From a virus (taxonomy: Duplodnaviria; Heunggongvirae; Uroviricota; Caudoviricetes), in the IMG/VR virus record IMGVR_UViG_2859793810_000003: DNA of 11,249 nucleotides; one strand, given 5' to 3'. Numbering within the stretch: the stretch's first letter is position 1; every line of letters begins with the position of its first letter. Position numbers and translations under genes: made by a program. Below, one piece after another: positions 3,967 to 11,249 of this stretch. The notes under the pieces are model-generated. The model was not told the DNA's origin. It saw nothing but the letters and a program-made list of their open reading frames with translations, and searched no databases.

Positions 3967-5016
3967 GTGCGGGTATTACTTCGACCTGTTCTGGTTCCGG
4001 AACTCGGGCTGGTGGTCCTTAAGCCCGGTCGTGAATCCATGCCGGTATTCCACAATACCCGGGTACTGGTGGAGCCGGAACCGAAAAGCATGCGTAATCT
4101 GCCGTCCGGGGTCGTTCCTGCCGTTCGCCAGCCGCTAGTGGAAGACAAAACATTGCTGCCGTTTTTCAGTAACGCACGGGTGATTCGTGCTGCTGGTGGT
4201 GCTGGCGCATTGTCTGACTGGCTGTTGCGCCATATTAAATCCTGCCAGTGGCCACACGGCGATTATCATCACAGCGAAACCGTCATTCACCGTTATGGTA
4301 CCGGCGCAATGGTATTGTGCTGGCACTGCGACAACCAGCTGCGTGACCAGACATCCGAATCACTCGAGCAACTTGCTCATCAAAACCTGTCAGCATGGAT
4401 GATTGACGTCATCGGTCACGCAATAAGCGGTACGCAGGAGCGTGAATTATCTCTGGCTGAATTATCCTGGTGGGCGGTCCGCAATCAGGTGGCGGACGCG
4501 CTACCGGAAGCGGTATTACGTCGTTCGCTGGGGTTGCGTGCGGAAAAAATCCGCTCAATGTACCGTGAAAGCGACATCGTGCCGGGAGAGCAGACCGCCA
4601 CCAGCATACTGAAGCAGCGCACAAAAAATCTTGCGCCGCTGCCTCACGCCCACCAGCAACAGAACCCACAACAGGAAAAGACGGTGGTCAGCATTGCCGT
4701 TGATCCTGAGTCTCCGGAATCTTTCATGAAACGACCTAAACGTCGCCGCTGGGTTAACGAGAAATACAAACGCTGGGTGAAGACACAGCCGTGTGCGTGT
4801 TGTGGTAAGCCAGCCGACGATCCCCATCACCTGATTGGTCATGGTCAGGGCGGAATGGGGACCAAATCTCACGATATTTTCACGCTACCGCTGTGTCGGG
4901 AGCATCACAACGAGCTTCATGCGGATCCTCTGGCGTTCGAAGAAAAGCATGGTTCTCAGGTTGATTTAATTTTTCGTTTTCTTGATCACGCCTTTGCAAC
5001 TGGCGTGCTTGGGTAA
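3967..5016 (+). CDS. ydfU: YdfU-like DUF968 prophage protein with C-terminal Cys/His (HNH-like) motif
   Basis: 349-aa ORF, GTG start preceded by GGAGG; N-terminus MRVLLRPVLVPELGLVVLKPG and overall sequence recalled as K-12 YdfU; C-terminus contains CACCGKPADDPHHLIGHG...CREHHNELH. Confidence 0.75.
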   Translation: MRVLLRPVLVPELGLVVLKPGRESMPVFHNTRVLVEPEPKSMRNLPSGVVPAVRQPLVEDKTLLPFFSNARVIRAAGGAGALSDWLLRHIKSCQWPHGDYHHSETVIHRYGTGAMVLCWHCDNQLRDQTSESLEQLAHQNLSAWMIDVIGHAISGTQERELSLAELSWWAVRNQVADALPEAVLRRSLGLRAEKIRSMYRESDIVPGEQTATSILKQRTKNLAPLPHAHQQQNPQQEKTVVSIAVDPESPESFMKRPKRRRWVNEKYKRWVKTQPCACCGKPADDPHHLIGHGQGGMGTKSHDIFTLPLCREHHNELHADPLAFEEKHGSQVDLIFRFLDHAFATGVLG

Positions 5017-5028
5017 AAGAGGTGACTG

Positions 5029-5385
5029 ATGCTCATAGATTTGGTTTTACCTTACCCGCCGACGGTGAACACTTACTGGCGACGCCGTGGCAGCACATAT
5101 TTTATCTCGGAGGAGGGAAAGCGTTATCGCCGGGCTGTGGCGCTTATTGTTCGCCAGCAGCGGCTGAAATTAAGCCTGTCCGGAAGGCTGGCGATAAAGG
5201 TGATTGCAGAGCCACCGGATAAGCGTCGTCGCGACCTGGACAATATCCTGAAAGCACCGCTGGATGCGCTGACGCATGCGGGAGTGTTAATGGACGATGA
5301 GCAGTTTGATGAAATCAATATCGTTCGTGGTCAGCCAGTATCTGGTGGACGTCTGGGGGTGAAGATTTACCCCATAATGCATTAA
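5029..5385 (+). CDS. rusA: RusA-family Holliday junction resolvase
   Basis: 118-aa ORF with Shine-Dalgarno AAGAGGTGA; motif PDKRRRDLDNILKAPLDALTHAGVLMDDEQ matches the RusA catalytic region (K-12 RusA has PDRRRRDLDN...DALT). Confidence 0.85.
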   Translation: MLIDLVLPYPPTVNTYWRRRGSTYFISEEGKRYRRAVALIVRQQRLKLSLSGRLAIKVIAEPPDKRRRDLDNILKAPLDALTHAGVLMDDEQFDEINIVRGQPVSGGRLGVKIYPIMH

Positions 5386-5399
5386 GAGCAGGTCAAAAA

Positions 5400-6221
5400 A
5401 TGAAACTGGAAGATTTACCGAAATACTACTCCCCAAAATCCCCTGGCCTGACCGATGCATCGGCCTCAACGTCAAAAGATGCGCTGAGTATCACTGATGT
5501 GATGGCCGCGCAGGGCATGACACAGAATCGGGCTGAGATGGGTTTTTCTGCGTTCCTGGGGAAAATGGGCATCAGTATGAATGACAGGGCGCGGGCAACA
5601 GAATTACTGGCAGATTATGCACTCAGTCGGTGCGATCGTGTGGCGGCGTTGAGAAAACTTCCGGCAGAAATAAAACCGGTAGTGATGCGCATTATGGCTT
5701 CGTACGCTTTTGAGGATTATGCCCGCAGCGCAGCGAGTAAAAAGCAGTGCCCTTGTTGCTATGGGGAAAAATTTATTGAAAGCATAGTTTTTACAAACAA
5801 GATCCAGTATCCGGATGGTAAGCCGCCGGTATGGGCAAAGTGTACGAAAGGTGTGTATCCGTTTTACTGGGAAGAATGGAAAAAAGTCAGGGAGGTGGTA
5901 AAAGTTGCCTGTCCGGAGTGTGGCGGAAAGGGTGAGGTTTCCACCGCCTGTAAGGATTGCCGTGGGCGTGGTGTCGCCATTCATCGTGAAGAGTCGGTAA
6001 AACGTGGTATGCCTGTTATCAGAGACTGCCAGCGTTGTGGTGGTCGTGGCTATGAAAGACTACCATCAACGGAGGCATTTAATGCTATATGCGAGGTGAC
6101 AAACCAGATAACACGCGCGTCATGGGAAAAAACAGTTAAGAAATTTTATGATGCGCTGGTGACCCGGTTTGATATTGAAGAAGCATGGGCTGAGCGGCAG
6201 TTAAAAAAGGTAACTAGGTAA
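5400..6221 (+). CDS. Late-gene antiterminator Q-like protein (QuuQ-like), carrying four CxxCxGxG zinc-finger repeats
   Basis: 273-aa ORF positioned between rusA and a PR'/tR'-like module, as for Q in lambdoid phages; N-terminus resembles my recollection of K-12 QuuQ; four CxxCxGxx motifs (CPCCYGEK, CPECGGKG, CKDCRGRG, CQRCGGRG) seen in the translation. Confidence 0.7.
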   Translation: MKLEDLPKYYSPKSPGLTDASASTSKDALSITDVMAAQGMTQNRAEMGFSAFLGKMGISMNDRARATELLADYALSRCDRVAALRKLPAEIKPVVMRIMASYAFEDYARSAASKKQCPCCYGEKFIESIVFTNKIQYPDGKPPVWAKCTKGVYPFYWEEWKKVREVVKVACPECGGKGEVSTACKDCRGRGVAIHREESVKRGMPVIRDCQRCGGRGYERLPSTEAFNAICEVTNQITRASWEKTVKKFYDALVTRFDIEEAWAERQLKKVTR

Positions 6222-6226
6222 CAAGG

Positions 6227-6254
6227 TTGATTTTTCCGGAATCTGTGGTAAATT
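6227..6254 (+). promoter_or_regulatory. PR'-like late promoter (-35 TTGATT, 16-bp spacer, -10 TAAATT) with a lambda-like initial transcribed region
   Basis: TTGATT...TAAATTcgtcataatgatgggcg resembles lambda PR' (TTGACT...TAAATTtgactcaacgatgggtt) as recalled; located immediately after the Q-like gene. Confidence 0.45.
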
Positions 6255-6303
6255 CGTCATAATGATGGGCGTTTTATGCCTGGCGTTAGAAGAGTTTCTA
6301 CAA

Positions 6304-6327
6304 CCCGCCGCTGAGCGGGTTTTTTTA
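6304..6327 (+). terminator. tR'-like rho-independent terminator
   Basis: Hairpin cccgc-cgctga-gcggg followed by seven T; lies about 50 bp downstream of the PR'-like promoter. Confidence 0.6.
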
Positions 6328-6365
6328 TTGCGAAATTAATTACGGACCGTTATTATTCTGCTCCC

Positions 6366-6441
6366 GGCCCTTTAGCTCAGTGGTGAGAGCGAGCGACTCA
6401 TAATCGCCAGGTCGCTGGTTCAAATCCAGCAAGGGCCACCA
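6366..6441 (+). tRNA. ileZ: tRNA-Ile2 (anticodon CAU, lysidine-type), phage-borne ileZ-like
   Basis: 76-nt cloverleaf folded by hand: acceptor GGCCCTT/AAGGGCC, D-stem GCTC/GAGC, anticodon loop CTCATAA (CAT at 6399-6401), T-loop TTCAAAT, 3' CCA encoded. Sequence much closer to E. coli ileX than to Met tRNAs as I recall them. Confidence 0.85.
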
Positions 6442-6542
6442 TCACAAACCGCCATTAGCTTATCAGGAAGAGCAGACGACACGATAACAGGGTTGTTGGT
6501 GCGGGGGGCGGGTCCCCGATGGCGGTCCATTATCGGTATTCA

Positions 6543-6619
6543 GCGTTGTTAGCTCAGCCGGACAGAGCAATTGCCTTCTAAGCAATCGGTCACTGGTTCG
6601 AATCCAGTACAGCGCGCCA
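6543..6619 (+). tRNA. tRNA-Arg (anticodon UCU, reads AGA)
   Basis: 77-nt cloverleaf folded by hand: acceptor GCGTTGT/ACAGCGC, anticodon stem ATTGC/GCAAT, loop CTTCTAA (TCT at 6577-6579), T-loop TTCGAAT, CCA encoded; similar to argU. Confidence 0.85.
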
Positions 6620-6729
6620 TATTCATTCTTCCAGATTCCTTCCGGCAGAGCCTTATACTGAAATATACCTGGCTCAGGATATTGTTGAAAATATTATATA
6701 TTTGTCAAAAATAAAAGTTCTGTTAAGTA

Positions 6730-7083
6730 TTGATTGAGTATTTGTTATACGGTCTAATGGTTTTTTCAGCATTAAGTATTTATCATTCATATGGTGTGGG
6801 TAGAGTGAATATTGATGAGGCGTCGGGGTGTTTCATCCTTAGGCAGCGTATTGATATAGTCAATGCAGCACGAGCAAAGGCCTTCAGCCGTTTGACAGTT
6901 TTGTTCTGTACTCCTGATCGTCTTTCGGGAAGAGACGTTATTATTCTGAATAGTGATGCTATACAGAGGGTTTGCGATGAGTTCATGGTTGCTAATTCAG
7001 AATTATTTGCTCTTGTTCAGGAGTACAACAGAATAGCCAGGACCTGTGGTATGGATGAACTTCGGATTACTCATCTGGGGTAG
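6730..7083 (+). CDS. Hypothetical protein in cargo region (117 aa from a TTG start; first in-frame ATG at 6757)
   Basis: Only the open frame supports this; no convincing Shine-Dalgarno; visibly AT-rich; contains several AGA/AGG/ATA codons. Not recognised. Confidence 0.3.
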   Translation: MIEYLLYGLMVFSALSIYHSYGVGRVNIDEASGCFILRQRIDIVNAARAKAFSRLTVLFCTPDRLSGRDVIILNSDAIQRVCDEFMVANSELFALVQEYNRIARTCGMDELRITHLG

Positions 7084-7475
7084 ATACATATCTGGATTAT
7101 CACCTGTTACGGTAAAAAGTGATTGCTTACTGTTTTTGTTAATGGCATTGCAGCAGCCGGATAATGTCAGTGCCGGCTGACGGTGTGCTGGTGGCGGGTG
7201 TGGTGGTTGTTGCTTTCCCGTTGCTGAAAAAGAAAACGCCAGACTGTTAGCCGGGTATCAGTTAGCGGGAGAAATTTTTAAATACTTCACAATTCAGGCG
7301 GTTGACTGTTGTCTGGTTTGCGGGGAGTTTGTTAAAAGAAACTGGCATGGTGAATCCCCCTGTGCGGAGGGGCAATCAGCGAGTAGGTATATGGGATAAT
7401 CGCGGATTCAGGTGCTGGTACTGAATTCACCGGGAGGCACCCGGCACCATGGAATGGCACATAGCGCCACTCTCC

Positions 7476-7510
7476 AGCCCCTCTCCGGAGGGGCTGTTTA
7501 TATTGATTTT
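7476..7510 (+). terminator. Rho-independent terminator (perfect 8-bp stem)
   Basis: agcccctc-tccg-gaggggct followed by GTTTATATTGATTTT. Confidence 0.55.
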
Positions 7511-7530
7511 GTCAGATGTGAGTAAACTCC

Positions 7531-7866
7531 TTATGGACTTTGTTGTTTTAGTCCATAAGGGCATATTTGCAGAGTGCAACGGTTATTAAAGCATTCATTC
7601 AATACGTTATCTGTATTTGTAGGGCATTCCTGGCTGTTTTTGATTAAATTCCAGAATGTTTTATTGAATGGTACTACGTTGTAAATGGTTACAGGTAGCA
7701 CTTTGTTATTGAGCATGATGCCTGTGTGAGTCAGTGTAAATATACTTTCAGGAGGTAAGAAAGCATCCGATTGATACCAGATTATTAATTTTATTTTACT
7801 CCATATGACTGAAAAAGATATTCCGCATGATGGCTGGATAACTGTATCAATCACAATCCACTTCAT
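7531..7866 (-). CDS. Hypothetical protein, opposite strand to the phage late operon (111 aa, Cys-containing C-terminus)
   Basis: ORF with good Shine-Dalgarno (AAGGAA, 5-nt spacer, ATG) on the minus strand; AT-rich; a perfect 11-bp inverted repeat (7529-7560) overlaps its stop codon. Not recognised. Confidence 0.45.
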
Positions 7867-8110
7867 TTAGTTTCCTTGTTTATGCCTTGCTGGTGATGTT
7901 CTGAAAAGTATAAATGATATTTTTGAATTAAACCATAGAACAGAATTATTTTTCTGATGTTGTTTATTGTTTATTTAAATGCAGGGTGGTTTATATCTCG
8001 TCTTGTAGTTTATCCATGCATATCTGCTTGATAATCAGGTTTTTATTTAAGGTATGGTTTTGTGTTTTTTCTGTATTACATGTCAGGTATTTTAAAGAAT
8101 TATTTTTCAG

Positions 8111-8314: not shown

Positions 8315-8556
8315 TACTACGTCATCGTACTGGCCCGGCATTCCAGGCCATAAAAGACAGTCTGGCAGTGGGACTAAATGCACTGACGCTGACGGATATT
8401 ACCAAAAATGCAACGTATGGCGTTGAGATAGAAAGTCTGGTGCTGGAGATAAATGCACCGGCATCATCATAAAAAGTGAGCCAGTCAAATGGAAGGTATC
8501 GTTAAACTCACCGGTAGTGTCAGTGGGTCGTCTGAGACGCTTGCATGAGTTATCAG

Positions 8557-8588
8557 AGCCATCAGTAGTTAACTGGTGGCTTTTTTAT
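8557..8588 (+). terminator. Putative rho-independent terminator upstream of the holin gene
   Basis: agccatcag-tagttaa-ctggtggct (one mismatch) followed by TTTTTTATTG. Confidence 0.45.
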
Positions 8589-8621
8589 TGTTGTCAGCTT
8601 CCGGATAACGGGAGACGGGGT

Positions 8622-8782
8622 ATGGACCAGATGGAAAAAATCACAACAGGTGTGTCATACACCACGTCAGCGGTGGGAACGGGCTACTGGTTCCTGCAGT
8701 TGCTGGACAGGGTTTCCCCGTCTCAGTGGGCGGCAATAGGCGTGCTGGGGAGTCTGCTGTTTGGGCTGCTGACATATCTGAC
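8622..8782 (+). pseudogene. Phage-21-type pinholin (S21 family) gene, 3'-truncated by IS insertion; dual-start motif M-D-Q-M
   Basis: [54 protein letters not shown] resembles S21 pinholin ([45 protein letters not shown]... as recalled); Shine-Dalgarno GGAGA upstream; the reading frame runs into the IS600-like right end at 8783 and terminates after 6 IS-derived codons. Confidence 0.8.
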
Positions 8783-9731
8783 TGAGGTGTACTGGCAATA
8801 GCGGACACTACCATTTGTTCTTTTTTTAAGCAGCCATCTGATGATATTTTTCCCTGAAGGCTGCCGGGGAGATATTCCCCAGACGAGAGTGACGACGCTG
8901 ACGATTGTAGAAAATCTCAATGTATTCCCGTATTACTGAGATGGCTTCATCCCGGTTATTAAAACGATAGTGGCTCAGGCTCTCATTTTTCAGCGTTCCC
9001 CAGAAGCTTTCCATCGGAGCGTTGTCGTAACAGTTACCTTTACGCGACATTGATGTTTTCAGACCAGACTGCTCCTGTATGACCCGGTAATCGTATGCGC
9101 AGTACTGTGAACCTCGATCAGAGTGGTGGATTAGCCCGGCAGGTGGGCGCTGGCTCCTGAGCGCCATAAACAGGGCTTTACCTGTCAGCTCTTTTGTCAT
9201 GCGCTCTCCCATGGCGTAGCCGACAATTTCACACGTATAAACATCTTTGATGCCAGCGAGGTACAACCATCCCTCCTGTGTGGCAACATACGTCAGGTCC
9301 GCCACCCAGACCTGATTTGGTGCTGTAGGAGCGAACGTCTGGTTCAGCAGATTTGGCGCAACTGGCAGATTGTGGTTCGGGTTCGTAGTCGCTCTGAACT
9401 TGCGTTTCTGCTTACAGCGTAGCCTCAGCTCCTTACGAAGACGTGCCAGTCGGTCACGACCAACGATGATGCCATTCTCTGCCAGCTCCGTCTGGAGCCG
9501 CCGGGTTCCATATGTTTCGCGAGTGCGGATATGTGCCACCTTAATCTCCGGTTTTAGCCGCTCATCACTTTGTTTTCTGTCTGAGGGTTCATGCTGTACC
9601 CAGTTGTAATAACCGCTCCTGGATACACCAAATACCTGACACATCGCTTCAATGGGAAATTGTTGTCGCCATTGTTCGATTAACGCGTATTTTTCAGCGA
9701 CTCCTGTGCAAAATACGCTGTTGCTTTTTTT
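8783..9731 (-). mobile_element. IS3-family insertion sequence (IS600-like), second copy, inverted relative to the first; left portion (IRL and most of orfA) missing, truncated by IS1
   Basis: Right end identical to the copy at 1-862 up to the CA terminus (reverse complement at 8783); the OrfAB reading frame continues upstream of the orfB ATG (…KYALIEQWRQQFPIEAMCQVF) and is cut at 9731 directly at an A-rich slippery-like heptamer. Confidence 0.85.
8826..9644 (-). CDS. IS3-family transposase OrfB (IS600-like), copy 2
   Basis: 272-aa ORF, one amino-acid different from the ORF at 1-819. Confidence 0.85.
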   Translation of the reverse strand: MCQVFGVSRSGYYNWVQHEPSDRKQSDERLKPEIKVAHIRTRETYGTRRLQTELAENGIIVGRDRLARLRKELRLRCKQKRKFRATTNPNHNLPVAPNLLNQTFAPTAPNQVWVADLTYVATQEGWLYLAGIKDVYTCEIVGYAMGERMTKELTGKALFMALRSQRPPAGLIHHSDRGSQYCAYDYRVIQEQSGLKTSMSRKGNCYDNAPMESFWGTLKNESLSHYRFNNRDEAISVIREYIEIFYNRQRRHSRLGNISPAAFREKYHQMAA

Positions 9732-9746
9732 GGTAATGACTCCAAC

Positions 9747-10250
9747 TTACTGATAGTGTTTTATGTTCAGATAATGCCCGATGACCTTGTCATGCAGCTC
9801 CACCGATTTTGAGAACGACAGTGACTTCCGTACCAGCCTTGCCAGATGTTGTCTCAGATTCAGATTATGTCGCTCAATGCGCTGAGTGTAACGCTTGCTG
9901 ATAACGTGCAGCTTTCCCTTCAGGCGTGATTCATACAGCGGACAGCCATCCGTCATCCATACCACGACCTCAAAGGCCGACAGCAGGCTCAGAAGACGCT
10001 CCAGTGTGGCCAGAGTGCGTTCACCGAAGACGTGCGCCACAACCGTCCTCCGTATCCTGTCATACGCGTAAAACAGCCAGCGCTGACGTGATTTAGCACC
10101 GACGTAGCCCCAATGTTCGTCCATTTCAGCGCAGACAATCACATCACTGCCCGGTTGTATGCGCGAGGTTACCGACTGCGGCCTGAGTTTTTTAAGTGAC
10201 GTAAAACCGTGTTGAGGCCAACGCCCATAATGCGTGCACTGGCGCGACAT
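9747..10250 (-). CDS. insB: IS1 InsB (catalytic part of the InsAB' transposase, made by -1 frameshift)
   Basis: 167-aa protein ...[38 protein letters not shown]... recognised as IS1 InsB; overlaps insA in the -1 frame. Confidence 0.95.
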
Positions 10251-10499: not shown

Positions 10500-11249
10500 C
10501 TGGTTGTAGACTTGTCTCAGCATATAAGTTGCTGGAATGATTACGGCGGCTGGTACGACACTGATCATATAAACCTGGTACAAGGCTCAGCTTTCGCAGG
10601 CTCCCTACAGTCATATAAAGGATCGCTGTACTGGAATAATGTGACCTACCCCTTCCCGTTGACGACAAATACCAACGTATTGGATATTGGTGATAAGACA
10701 CCGATGCCATTACCGTTAAAACTCTATATTACCCCAGTTGGGGCGGCCGGTGGAGTTGTCATAAAAGCGGGGGAAGTCATTGCCCGTATTCATATGTATA
10801 AAATTGCAACATTAGGAAGCGGAAATCCGCGTAATTTTACGTGGAATATTATTTCAAATAACAGTGTTGTTATGCCAACAGGCGGCTGCACCGTTGATAG
10901 TCGTAATGTCACCGTGGATCTCCCGGACTTTCCTGGAAGCGCAGAAATACCCCTTGGCGTATATTGCTCAAGCGAACAAAAGCTCTCATTTTATCTTTCG
11001 GGTGCCACCACTGACAGTAGCCGACAAGTGTTTGCTAACACAGCACCTGATGCAACAAAAGCATCGGGAGTGGGTGTCACTCTAATGCGTAATGGAAAAA
11101 TACTGGCTACGGGAGAAAATGTCTCCCTGGGGACAGTAAATAAAAGCAAAGTACCTCTGGGTTTAAGCGCAACCTATGGACAAACAGGAAACAAGGTTTC
11201 AGCCGGAACCGTCCAGTCAGTCATTGGTGTCACTTTTATCTATGAATAA
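10500..11249 (+). pseudogene. FimH-like fimbrial tip adhesin gene (chaperone-usher family), 5'-truncated by IS1; 3' end and stop codon intact at window end
   Basis: The frame is open from the IS1 junction; [17 protein letters not shown]...[24 protein letters not shown]...[12 protein letters not shown] aligns by eye with E. coli FimH (LVVDLSTQIFCHNDYPE...VVPTGGCDVSARDVTVTLPDYPGS...VQSIIGVTFVYQ); the signal peptide and start of the lectin domain are missing. Confidence 0.8.

Follow-up and report, generated by a model that had tools for sequence, protein, structure and literature searches.

The window, the whole 11,249-nt stretch of Caudoviricetes DNA analysed here (IMG/VR record IMGVR_UViG_2859793810_000003), comes from a lambda-like prophage in decay, within an enterobacterial genome laden with IS elements. 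Its positions 6700-7900 are 99.3% identical to their best matches in E. coli. Inverted copies of an IS3-family element, at 1-862 and 8783-9644 (862 nt, 99.9% identical), flank the prophage fragment, and the right-hand copy interrupts the holin gene at 8783. A further IS3-family transposase lies at 1499-2338, an IS1 transposase at 9747-10250 and a 5'-truncated fimH at 10512-11249; the IS elements, the interrupted holin and the truncated fimH give a picture of Shigella-like genome decay. The early region of the fragment carries a ParE-family toxin ORF at 2637-2924 on the plus strand (51 bits), and the ORF just upstream of it, 2398-2637, may be its antitoxin. The segment studied here, 7090-7510, has the following genes around it.

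3967-5016: DUF968 gene, from the prophage gene order
5029-5385: RusA gene, from the prophage gene order
5400-6221: gene for the Q antiterminator (Pfam Antiterm, 184 bits)
6366-6438 and 6543-6616: two tRNA genes, between Q and the segment
7531-7866, minus strand: iraM-like gene, convergent neighbour of the sRNA described below
8517-8801: holin gene, on the lysis side; the ORF corresponds to positions 1-54 of the 64-position holin profile

A sequence-only reading had described the segment as free of ORFs of 60 aa or more and GC-richer than its flanks, and both descriptions hold. The nearest ORFs are 6730-7083 on the plus strand and 7531-7866 on the minus strand, with no overlap on either strand in the ORF list, and the GC content of 0.499 compares with 0.392 in 6700-7089 and 0.343 in 7511-7930, although against the window-wide value of 0.487 the segment is only average. 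Q and the two tRNA genes (5400-6616) stand on one side and the lysis genes (holin, 8517) on the other. The sRNA found in it lies 3' of the late promoter, with the cargo ORFs before it and the lysis-side ORFs after it. The same 'moron' slot has been reported for prophage sRNAs (Tree et al. 2014), and in Stx phages it carries stx. We hold with good confidence that the segment is this cargo slot and contains two unrelated, already catalogued elements, a dead tciB-like DUF3927 gene remnant in its 5' half and an intact STnc100 sRNA gene in its 3' half.

Between Q and the first tRNA gene, at 6302-6356 on the plus strand and 81 nt past the Q stop codon, there is a terminator-like hairpin, AACCCGCCGCTGAGCGGGTT, followed by seven Ts, with a promoter-like TTGCGA-17-TATTAT directly after it. 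The hairpin could be the tR' of the late promoter, which is the site of the StxS short RNA in Stx phages, and the adjacent site could be the promoter of the tRNA genes.

The 3' half of the segment, with the spacer before it, is made up as follows.

7251-7345, plus strand: spacer and probable sRNA promoter, from a pile-up of -10-like sequences across the family
7316-7505, plus strand: STnc100 sRNA (Rfam RF02076, Gammaproteobacterial sRNA STnc100), full-length covariance-model match
7346-7451, plus strand: structured core, from the MFE fold and the Rfam structure line
7346-7352 with 7445-7451, plus strand: core helix P1
7356-7360 with 7367 and 7369-7372, plus strand: core helix P2, the second hairpin of the earlier reading
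7375-7380, plus strand: 5' strand of the pseudoknot, AUCAGC, just 3' of P2
7381-7403, plus strand: variable region within the core
7404-7411 with 7421-7428, plus strand: core helix P4
7414-7419, plus strand: 3' strand of the pseudoknot, GCUGGU, in the P4 loop
7430-7434 with 7440-7444, plus strand: core helix P5, the third hairpin of the earlier reading
7452-7474, plus strand: variable linker between core and terminator, differing between copies
7475-7510, plus strand: Rho-independent terminator, from the terminator scan, the repeat finder and the Rfam match

The covariance-model search that had been proposed as a check identified 7316-7505 as STnc100. The RF02076 match scores 124.2 bits, against a gathering score of 47, with E = 1.6e-27, and covers model positions 1-206 of 206 without truncation. 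It accounts for the second and third of the three hairpins noticed earlier and for the terminator, all of which are the sRNA's own. To take the three hairpins as a single structured unit would be wrong, as two of them are the sRNA helices P2 and P5 and the first lies within a coding remnant. No other Rfam family scores on the sRNA core. To our knowledge, the strand topology or the conserved nucleotides of tRNAs, HDV-like and hammerhead ribozymes and known riboswitches do not fit the core.

The family occurs in many genera. The same element scores 132 bits against RF02076 in E. coli 042 and 135 bits in an intact terB-DUF3927 locus, and matches of 51-126 bits occur in Atlantibacter, Enterobacter, Klebsiella, Citrobacter, Erwinia, Leclercia, Trabulsiella, Rosenbergiella, Superficieibacter and Phytobacter. 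A motif scan of one genome per species, which required the exact P2 motif, gave 32 loci spanning Escherichia, Atlantibacter, Enterobacter, Klebsiella, Citrobacter, Leclercia, Lelliottia, Trabulsiella, Phytobacter, Franconibacter, Superficieibacter, Rosenbergiella and Erwinia, and all 18 of the loci that were searched against Rfam held an STnc100 above threshold. What the copies have in common is the core equivalent to 7346-7451; they differ in what lies upstream, in the internal variable region, in the linker and in the terminator. The core sequence of the window itself recurs in 22 viral-contig matches and in E. coli ECMA0423. With the same helices, terminator arrangement and lambdoid prophage position as RF02076 and no essential difference from it, the window element is a typical STnc100 copy.

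Phage mEp460 is 99.2% identical to window positions 7084-7451, the match stopping exactly at the 3' end of the core; linker and terminator behave as a module that can be exchanged separately. In five Superficieibacter loci two to four STnc100 paralogues stand in an array; spacings of about 260 nt occur, and some paralogues have the core alone (Rfam model positions 32-146). Five other loci place STnc100 in contexts unlike prophage late regions; members in Citrobacter and Klebsiella flank a peptidase M3 (prlC-like) gene on its 3' side, one in Erwinia separates a periplasmic binding protein from a hydrolase, and others adjoin an EAL-domain protein or an autotransporter. The copy in Enterobacter ENT03 starts a few bases past a tRNA gene. 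At one Leclercia locus an isrI match (RF01392, 49.9 bits, positions 4609-4706 of that locus) lies directly upstream of STnc100, between Q and the lysozyme gene.

The hairpins that had been seen at 7356-7372 and 7430-7444 are present both in the MFE fold and as pairs of the Rfam alignment, their stems being below the repeat finder's minimum seed of 6. The terminator, earlier called textbook, has a stem of 9 bp at 7475-7496, seven of its pairs being G-C, and a loop of 4 nt; TTTATATTGA follows. P1, P2, P4, P5 and the terminator all appear in the MFE fold, and the terminator was also called by the scan. This fold is not more stable than those of shuffled sequences (z = -1.21), so thermodynamic stability alone is uninformative here, and it is the E value of the covariance match that shows more than chance.

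Covariation was measured on a MAFFT alignment of 30 distinct cores that was not fitted to any structure. The whole proposed structure was paired in 88.7% of cells, compared with 79.6% after shuffling, and none of 500 shuffles reached as high; sliding the structure lowered the figure to about 39-49%. Changes on both sides of a pair were seen in seven of the eight pairs of P4 and in two pairs of P1. The invariance of P2 is partly an artefact, as the collection scans demanded the exact P2 motif, whereas P5 was not demanded and is still nearly invariant across genera.

The same alignment points to a pseudoknot between the strand just 3' of P2 and the loop of P4. Taken alone, this helix was paired in 80.7% of cells, compared with 67.1 +/- 2.0% in shuffles, again with 0 of 500 as high, and only in 17-47% when slid by one to three columns. 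Cells with a change on both sides numbered 28, against 11.5 +/- 2.6 in the shuffles, and the pairing is kept in sequence variants as different as CCAG/CUGG, CUGG/CCAG, AAGCCA/UGGCUU, AAUGAC/GUCAUU and CUGACC/GGUCAG. The longest perfect match of the two strands averaged 5.5 nt when both came from one sequence and 3.9 nt when they came from different ones. A replicate with 45 distinct viral-contig cores gave 5.6 and 4.1 nt for these two cases, with compensatory differences even among close relatives. The search for compensatory changes that the sequence-only reading had recommended thus backs P1, P4 and the pseudoknot, and the results suggest that the STnc100 core contains a covarying pseudoknot across 13 or more genera. 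The STnc100 literature that we found does not mention it, and it is absent from the nested structure line given by cmscan, which is the form in which we saw the Rfam structure.

Two other features of the core were considered and dropped. A kissing interaction between the P2 and P5 loops was judged by eye, and the variable position of the P2 loop showed no covariation with the invariant P5 loop. An ORF starting from the ATG at 7449-7451, behind the GGAGG of P5, has its ATG only in Escherichia-type copies, other genera having CACCACA.

Much of what can be said about the activity of this RNA comes from its relatives. E. coli EDL933 has eleven STnc100 copies; most are transcribed, and a Northern blot confirmed STnc100_4 (PMC5331693). 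EcOnc27, the copy downstream of stx2B in Sakai, is sRNA103 in EDL933 and was recovered by Hfq cross-linking (PMC4104026, PMC7873438). Northern blots show it at about 235/247 nt, with the 247-nt species losing stability when Hfq is missing (PMC4104026 Table S2; PMC7873438); its overexpression raised the transcript levels of fimZ and espA (PMC7873438). The Hfq cross-linking peak found for EcOnc27 in Sakai spans the 3' strands of helices P5 and P1 together with linker and terminator.

EcOnc27, carried by the Stx2 phage Sp5 of EHEC O157:H7, belongs to the same family as the window copy and has the same core (CAUGGUGAAUCCCCC...CACCGGGAGGCACCCGGCACCAUG), and the two share their orientation with respect to the late operon and a place immediately after a cargo gene. 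EcOnc27 is an Hfq-binding RNA, as the window copy would be by analogy. There are also differences. DNA identity between the window and the Stx2a-phage copies is about 76%, with a different variable region, linker and terminator, and the upstream cargo is stx2AB in Sp5 but the DUF3927 remnant in the window. In Sp5, EcOnc27 is convergent with the anti-sRNA AsxR, while in the window the convergent neighbour is the iraM-like gene. Neither AsxR (RF02703) nor AgvB (RF02702) gave a match in 6900-8000, even at E values up to 10, and the sequence that bears the anti-sRNA partner in Sakai and in the intact terB-DUF3927 locus L035 is missing from the window, which thus lacks the 'convergent sRNA dyad' of EHEC. 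The window has a perfect 11-bp inverted repeat at 7529-7560, CCTTATGGACT-10 nt-AGTCCATAAGG, over the last codons of the minus-strand iraM-like gene. It lies about 20 nt past the T-rich tail of the sRNA terminator, at the position of the convergent anti-sRNA in EHEC phages, and no Rfam family matches it.

PasD1 and PasD2 of EPEC E2348/69 are Hfq-dependent and have RIL-seq partners (PMC8550237). Like the window copy they are prophage-encoded and lie downstream of Q, and a preprint describes PasD as related to STnc100, with shared structure and ancestry (bioRxiv 10.64898/2026.05.13.724894). The likeness, taken from that description, has limits, as BLAST with PasD misses STnc100 and the seed regions differ (same preprint).

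Upstream of the core, candidate promoter elements are TTGACT at 7302-7307 and an extended -10-like TGT-TAAAAG at 7330-7338. Across the 32 members, which come from many genera, there is an excess of -10-like hexamers at 7-9 nt before the UGGUG with which the core begins; 17 of the 32 have one at distances 7-8, compared with a background of 0-4 per position. A generic sigma-70 scan called no promoter for the sRNA, and its sole plus-strand hit in the segment, at 7136-7165, was set aside as it lies inside the ORF remnant and is unsupported. Homology to the Stx-phage copies starts at about 7278-7287. The conserved position of the -10 leads us to predict transcription from about 7345, giving an RNA of some 155-160 nt. 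About 30 positions at the beginning of the Rfam model (7316-7345) would then be promoter DNA and not transcript, as the -10 positions across the family suggest.

The equivalent start in Sakai predicts about 173 nt, and EcOnc27, as seen above, is longer, so either an upstream start or processing from a longer (cargo) transcript is possible. The sRNA might then be the processed 3' end or 3' UTR of a cargo transcript or of the Q-antiterminated late transcript, with the terminator belonging primarily to the cargo gene. The position of the sRNA, on the same strand as cargo ORFs and directly downstream of them (stx2B in Stx phages, terB-DUF3927 in L035 and the DUF3927 remnant in the window), fits this origin, as does the failure of the scan to find a canonical -35/-10 pair. 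We regard it as unlikely. The -10-like hexamer stands at a fixed 7-9 nt before the core in most members, while the sequences further upstream are otherwise unrelated; many members have no co-oriented upstream gene or are in tandem arrays; and STnc100 copies are expressed in uninduced EDL933 cultures (PMC5331693). An sRNA gene with its own promoter remains our preferred reading.

The 5' half of the segment is a different matter. Its features are these.

~7091-7250, plus strand: tciB-like DUF3927 pseudogene, from alignment with L035 and E. coli 042 and matches to PF13064 and PHROG 1470
7154-7179, plus strand: hairpin 1, CAGCCGG-12 nt-CCGGCTG, a perfect 7-nt inverted repeat
7164-7250, plus strand: 28-aa ORF, MSVPADGVLVAGVVVVAFPLLKKKTPDC, the in-frame C-terminal half with an internal Met start

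The translation of the small ORF is as the earlier reader gave it. It matches Pfam PF13064 (DUF3927) at 53.5 bits (cut-off 25), over profile positions 26-53 of 53 only, and the remnant also matches PHROG 1470, 'TciB-like'. The 28-aa sequence is exactly that of P0050, 'DUF3927 family protein [Shigella flexneri]', which is found on at least 1000 contigs. DUF3927 homologues fall into two groups, proteins of 54-57 aa with two hydrophobic helices (e.g. MTVKMRLAVVALLLFLVVMVVMVDFSSRIMSVLADGVLVAGVVVVAFPLLKKKTPDC) and many 28-aa forms. Intact genes follow terB (tciA-like) downstream of Q, and the order at L035 is terB, a 57-aa DUF3927 gene and STnc100. At the corresponding position the RefSeq record of E. 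coli 042 carries a 43-aa 'DUF3927 family protein'.

Alignment with L035 shows how the gene was lost. The two sequences are nearly identical from 7153 into the first part of the sRNA. The window shares the C-terminal half of the profile with intact TciB-like genes, but the start codon and the first helix are gone. The ancestral GTG start at 7106-7108 is GTT in the window, and the region coding for the first helix has deletions of 11, 4 and 14 nt, a total of 29, which shifts the frame and takes away most of that helix. The terB of L035-type loci has been replaced by an unrelated phage ORF (6757-7083, PHROG 2873), and the window contains no complete two-helix DUF3927 protein of about 54 aa with its own start. 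Given the GTT and the deletions in the first helix, the 28-aa ORF is what survives of the second helix, with its KKK tail. A TAA at 7140-7142, which is GAA in E. coli 042, was considered as an inactivating mutation but is minor, the 43-aa ORF of 042 being itself a decayed remnant.

The ORF at 6757-7083 (plus strand, 108 aa) matches PHROG 2873, of function not known, end to end at 232 bits and stands where intact terB-DUF3927 loci have terB; its equivalent in the E. coli 042 RefSeq record is unannotated. An NCBIfam search gave no match for this ORF or for the 28-aa ORF.

Translated comparison, which had been named as the test for a fragment of a known gene, was therefore positive for the 5' half (PF13064 positions 26-53 and frameshifting deletions). 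The sequence-only reading had left three options for the segment, an sRNA, a small-peptide gene or a decayed remnant; the first applies to the 3' half and the last to the 5' half, and a small-peptide gene is highly improbable. Hairpin 1 is, as described, a perfect 7-nt inverted repeat with a 12-nt loop. It sits within the coding remnant, and its loop contains the ATG of the 28-aa ORF. The 3' arm reads CTGGCTG in both E. coli 042 and L035, which puts one G-U pair in the RNA in place of a G-C pair. We read the hairpin as a by-product of the conserved SSRIMSVLADG coding sequence and not as a separate element.

It could be argued that the 28-aa ORF is nevertheless an independently expressed, functional small membrane peptide, either type I toxin-like or a regulatory micro-protein. 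It retains a whole hydrophobic helix, a KKK anchor and an ATG, and the 28-aa versions are annotated by NCBI and occur on more contigs than the full-length forms (at least 1000 each for P0050 and P0035, 795 for P0060 and 529 for P0031, compared with 443 for P0056 and 61 for P0030). We find this highly improbable. The peptide is the C-terminal half of a 54-57-aa two-helix protein whose start and first helix have been destroyed, no Shine-Dalgarno-like sequence precedes its ATG (CAGCCGGATAATG), and the ATG itself is in the loop of a 7-bp hairpin. The abundance of the 28-aa forms comes from linkage to a widespread, near-identical prophage module and reflects recent spread, not selection.

The comparison with type I toxins, made earlier from the hydrophobic stretch and the lysine cluster, does not survive either. 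The likeness to hok/sok and similar systems is that of a small hydrophobic prophage peptide with a basic tail, but the hydrophobic stretch is the second transmembrane helix of DUF3927, and the window has no antitoxin RNA, matching RNA family or translational-control architecture. No Rfam family of cognate antisense or overlapping antitoxin RNAs scores in the window, or in or near the segment. The lack of an antitoxin RNA and the origin of the ORF as a DUF3927 remnant lead us to reject the type I toxin idea, and the 28-aa ORF is most likely not a functional gene, although a protein annotated by NCBI and present on thousands of contigs could conceivably keep some residual function. A true hok/sok locus is present elsewhere in the related E. 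coli 042 prophage and absent from the window. The intact relatives of the DUF3927 gene encode an inner-membrane peptide of 54-57 aa with two helices, translated directly after the terB/tciA gene.

What the sRNA does in the window prophage we infer from its relatives and its design, and this covers its transcription, its Hfq binding, its targets and the role of the folded domain. The gene at 7316-7505 is intact, with its own intrinsic terminator and probably its own promoter. By analogy with EcOnc27/sRNA103 and PasD, the RNA would be made in the lysogen, and Hfq would bind and stabilise it through the 3' linker, the terminator and the U-tail. Its action would be in trans, through pairing with mRNAs of host and prophage. 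The linker, 7452-7474, is the probable region of Hfq contact and target pairing, again on the model of the relatives. The 5' domain of about 106 nt (7346-7451) is a compact, multi-helix structure locked by the pseudoknot, and would have a role in stability or in binding a partner. The design appears modular, a conserved folded domain being followed by a variable linker that would set target specificity and then by the terminator.

That the core is a separate working part of the RNA is a tentative proposal, and we hold it to be possible rather than probable. According to it, the first 106 nt or so of STnc100 form a tertiary domain of five helices and a pseudoknot, which may be a module for binding a protein or ligand or a nuclease-resistant scaffold, and the linker alone gives pairing specificity. 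The core is conserved from Erwinia to Escherichia, in both prophage and non-prophage contexts. If the proposal is true, the STnc100 family is a modular riboregulator and not an ordinary seed-type sRNA.

The compact fold, the near-invariant hairpin and the covarying pseudoknot, traits seen more often in RNAs that bind ligands or proteins than in seed-type sRNAs, and the conservation of the core between Q and the lysis genes in several genera might also suggest a cis-acting element of the late transcript (riboswitch-like, or concerned with antitermination or processing), but this is barely plausible. The next gene downstream in the window, the iraM-like one at 7531-7866, runs in the other direction. 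A variable linker stands between core and terminator, and the terminator shares no sequence with P1, leaving no expression platform of alternative pairings. Some members are in places that do not resemble prophage late operons, for instance in the 3' flank of the peptidase M3 gene, and relatives are detected as discrete Hfq-bound RNAs.

Both elements of the segment are already in public annotation, where pipelines such as Infernal/Rfam and PGAP label them, and the finding as such is thus already known. It illustrates that an 'ORF-free structured segment' can be two known objects lying side by side. The pseudoknot and the reading of the family as modular are the only points that may be worth further work.

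The family itself has some importance. Its member in EHEC lies directly downstream of stx2, binds Hfq and has been linked to fimZ and espA levels (PMC7873438). A machine-learning study found SNPs in it to be predictive of HUS (PMC12711010). The HUS-associated positions, +90 and +103 after stx2B (Sakai Sp5; PMC12711010), correspond to approximately positions 15 and 28 of the Rfam model, figures that we derived by arithmetic from the reported 75-nt offset and not from the variant sequences. If the first 30 or so model positions are promoter DNA, then +90 and +103 would be in or beside the promoter of the sRNA and outside the folded RNA. The evidence for the pseudoknot and the possible promoter nature of the first model positions could help work on the EHEC member.
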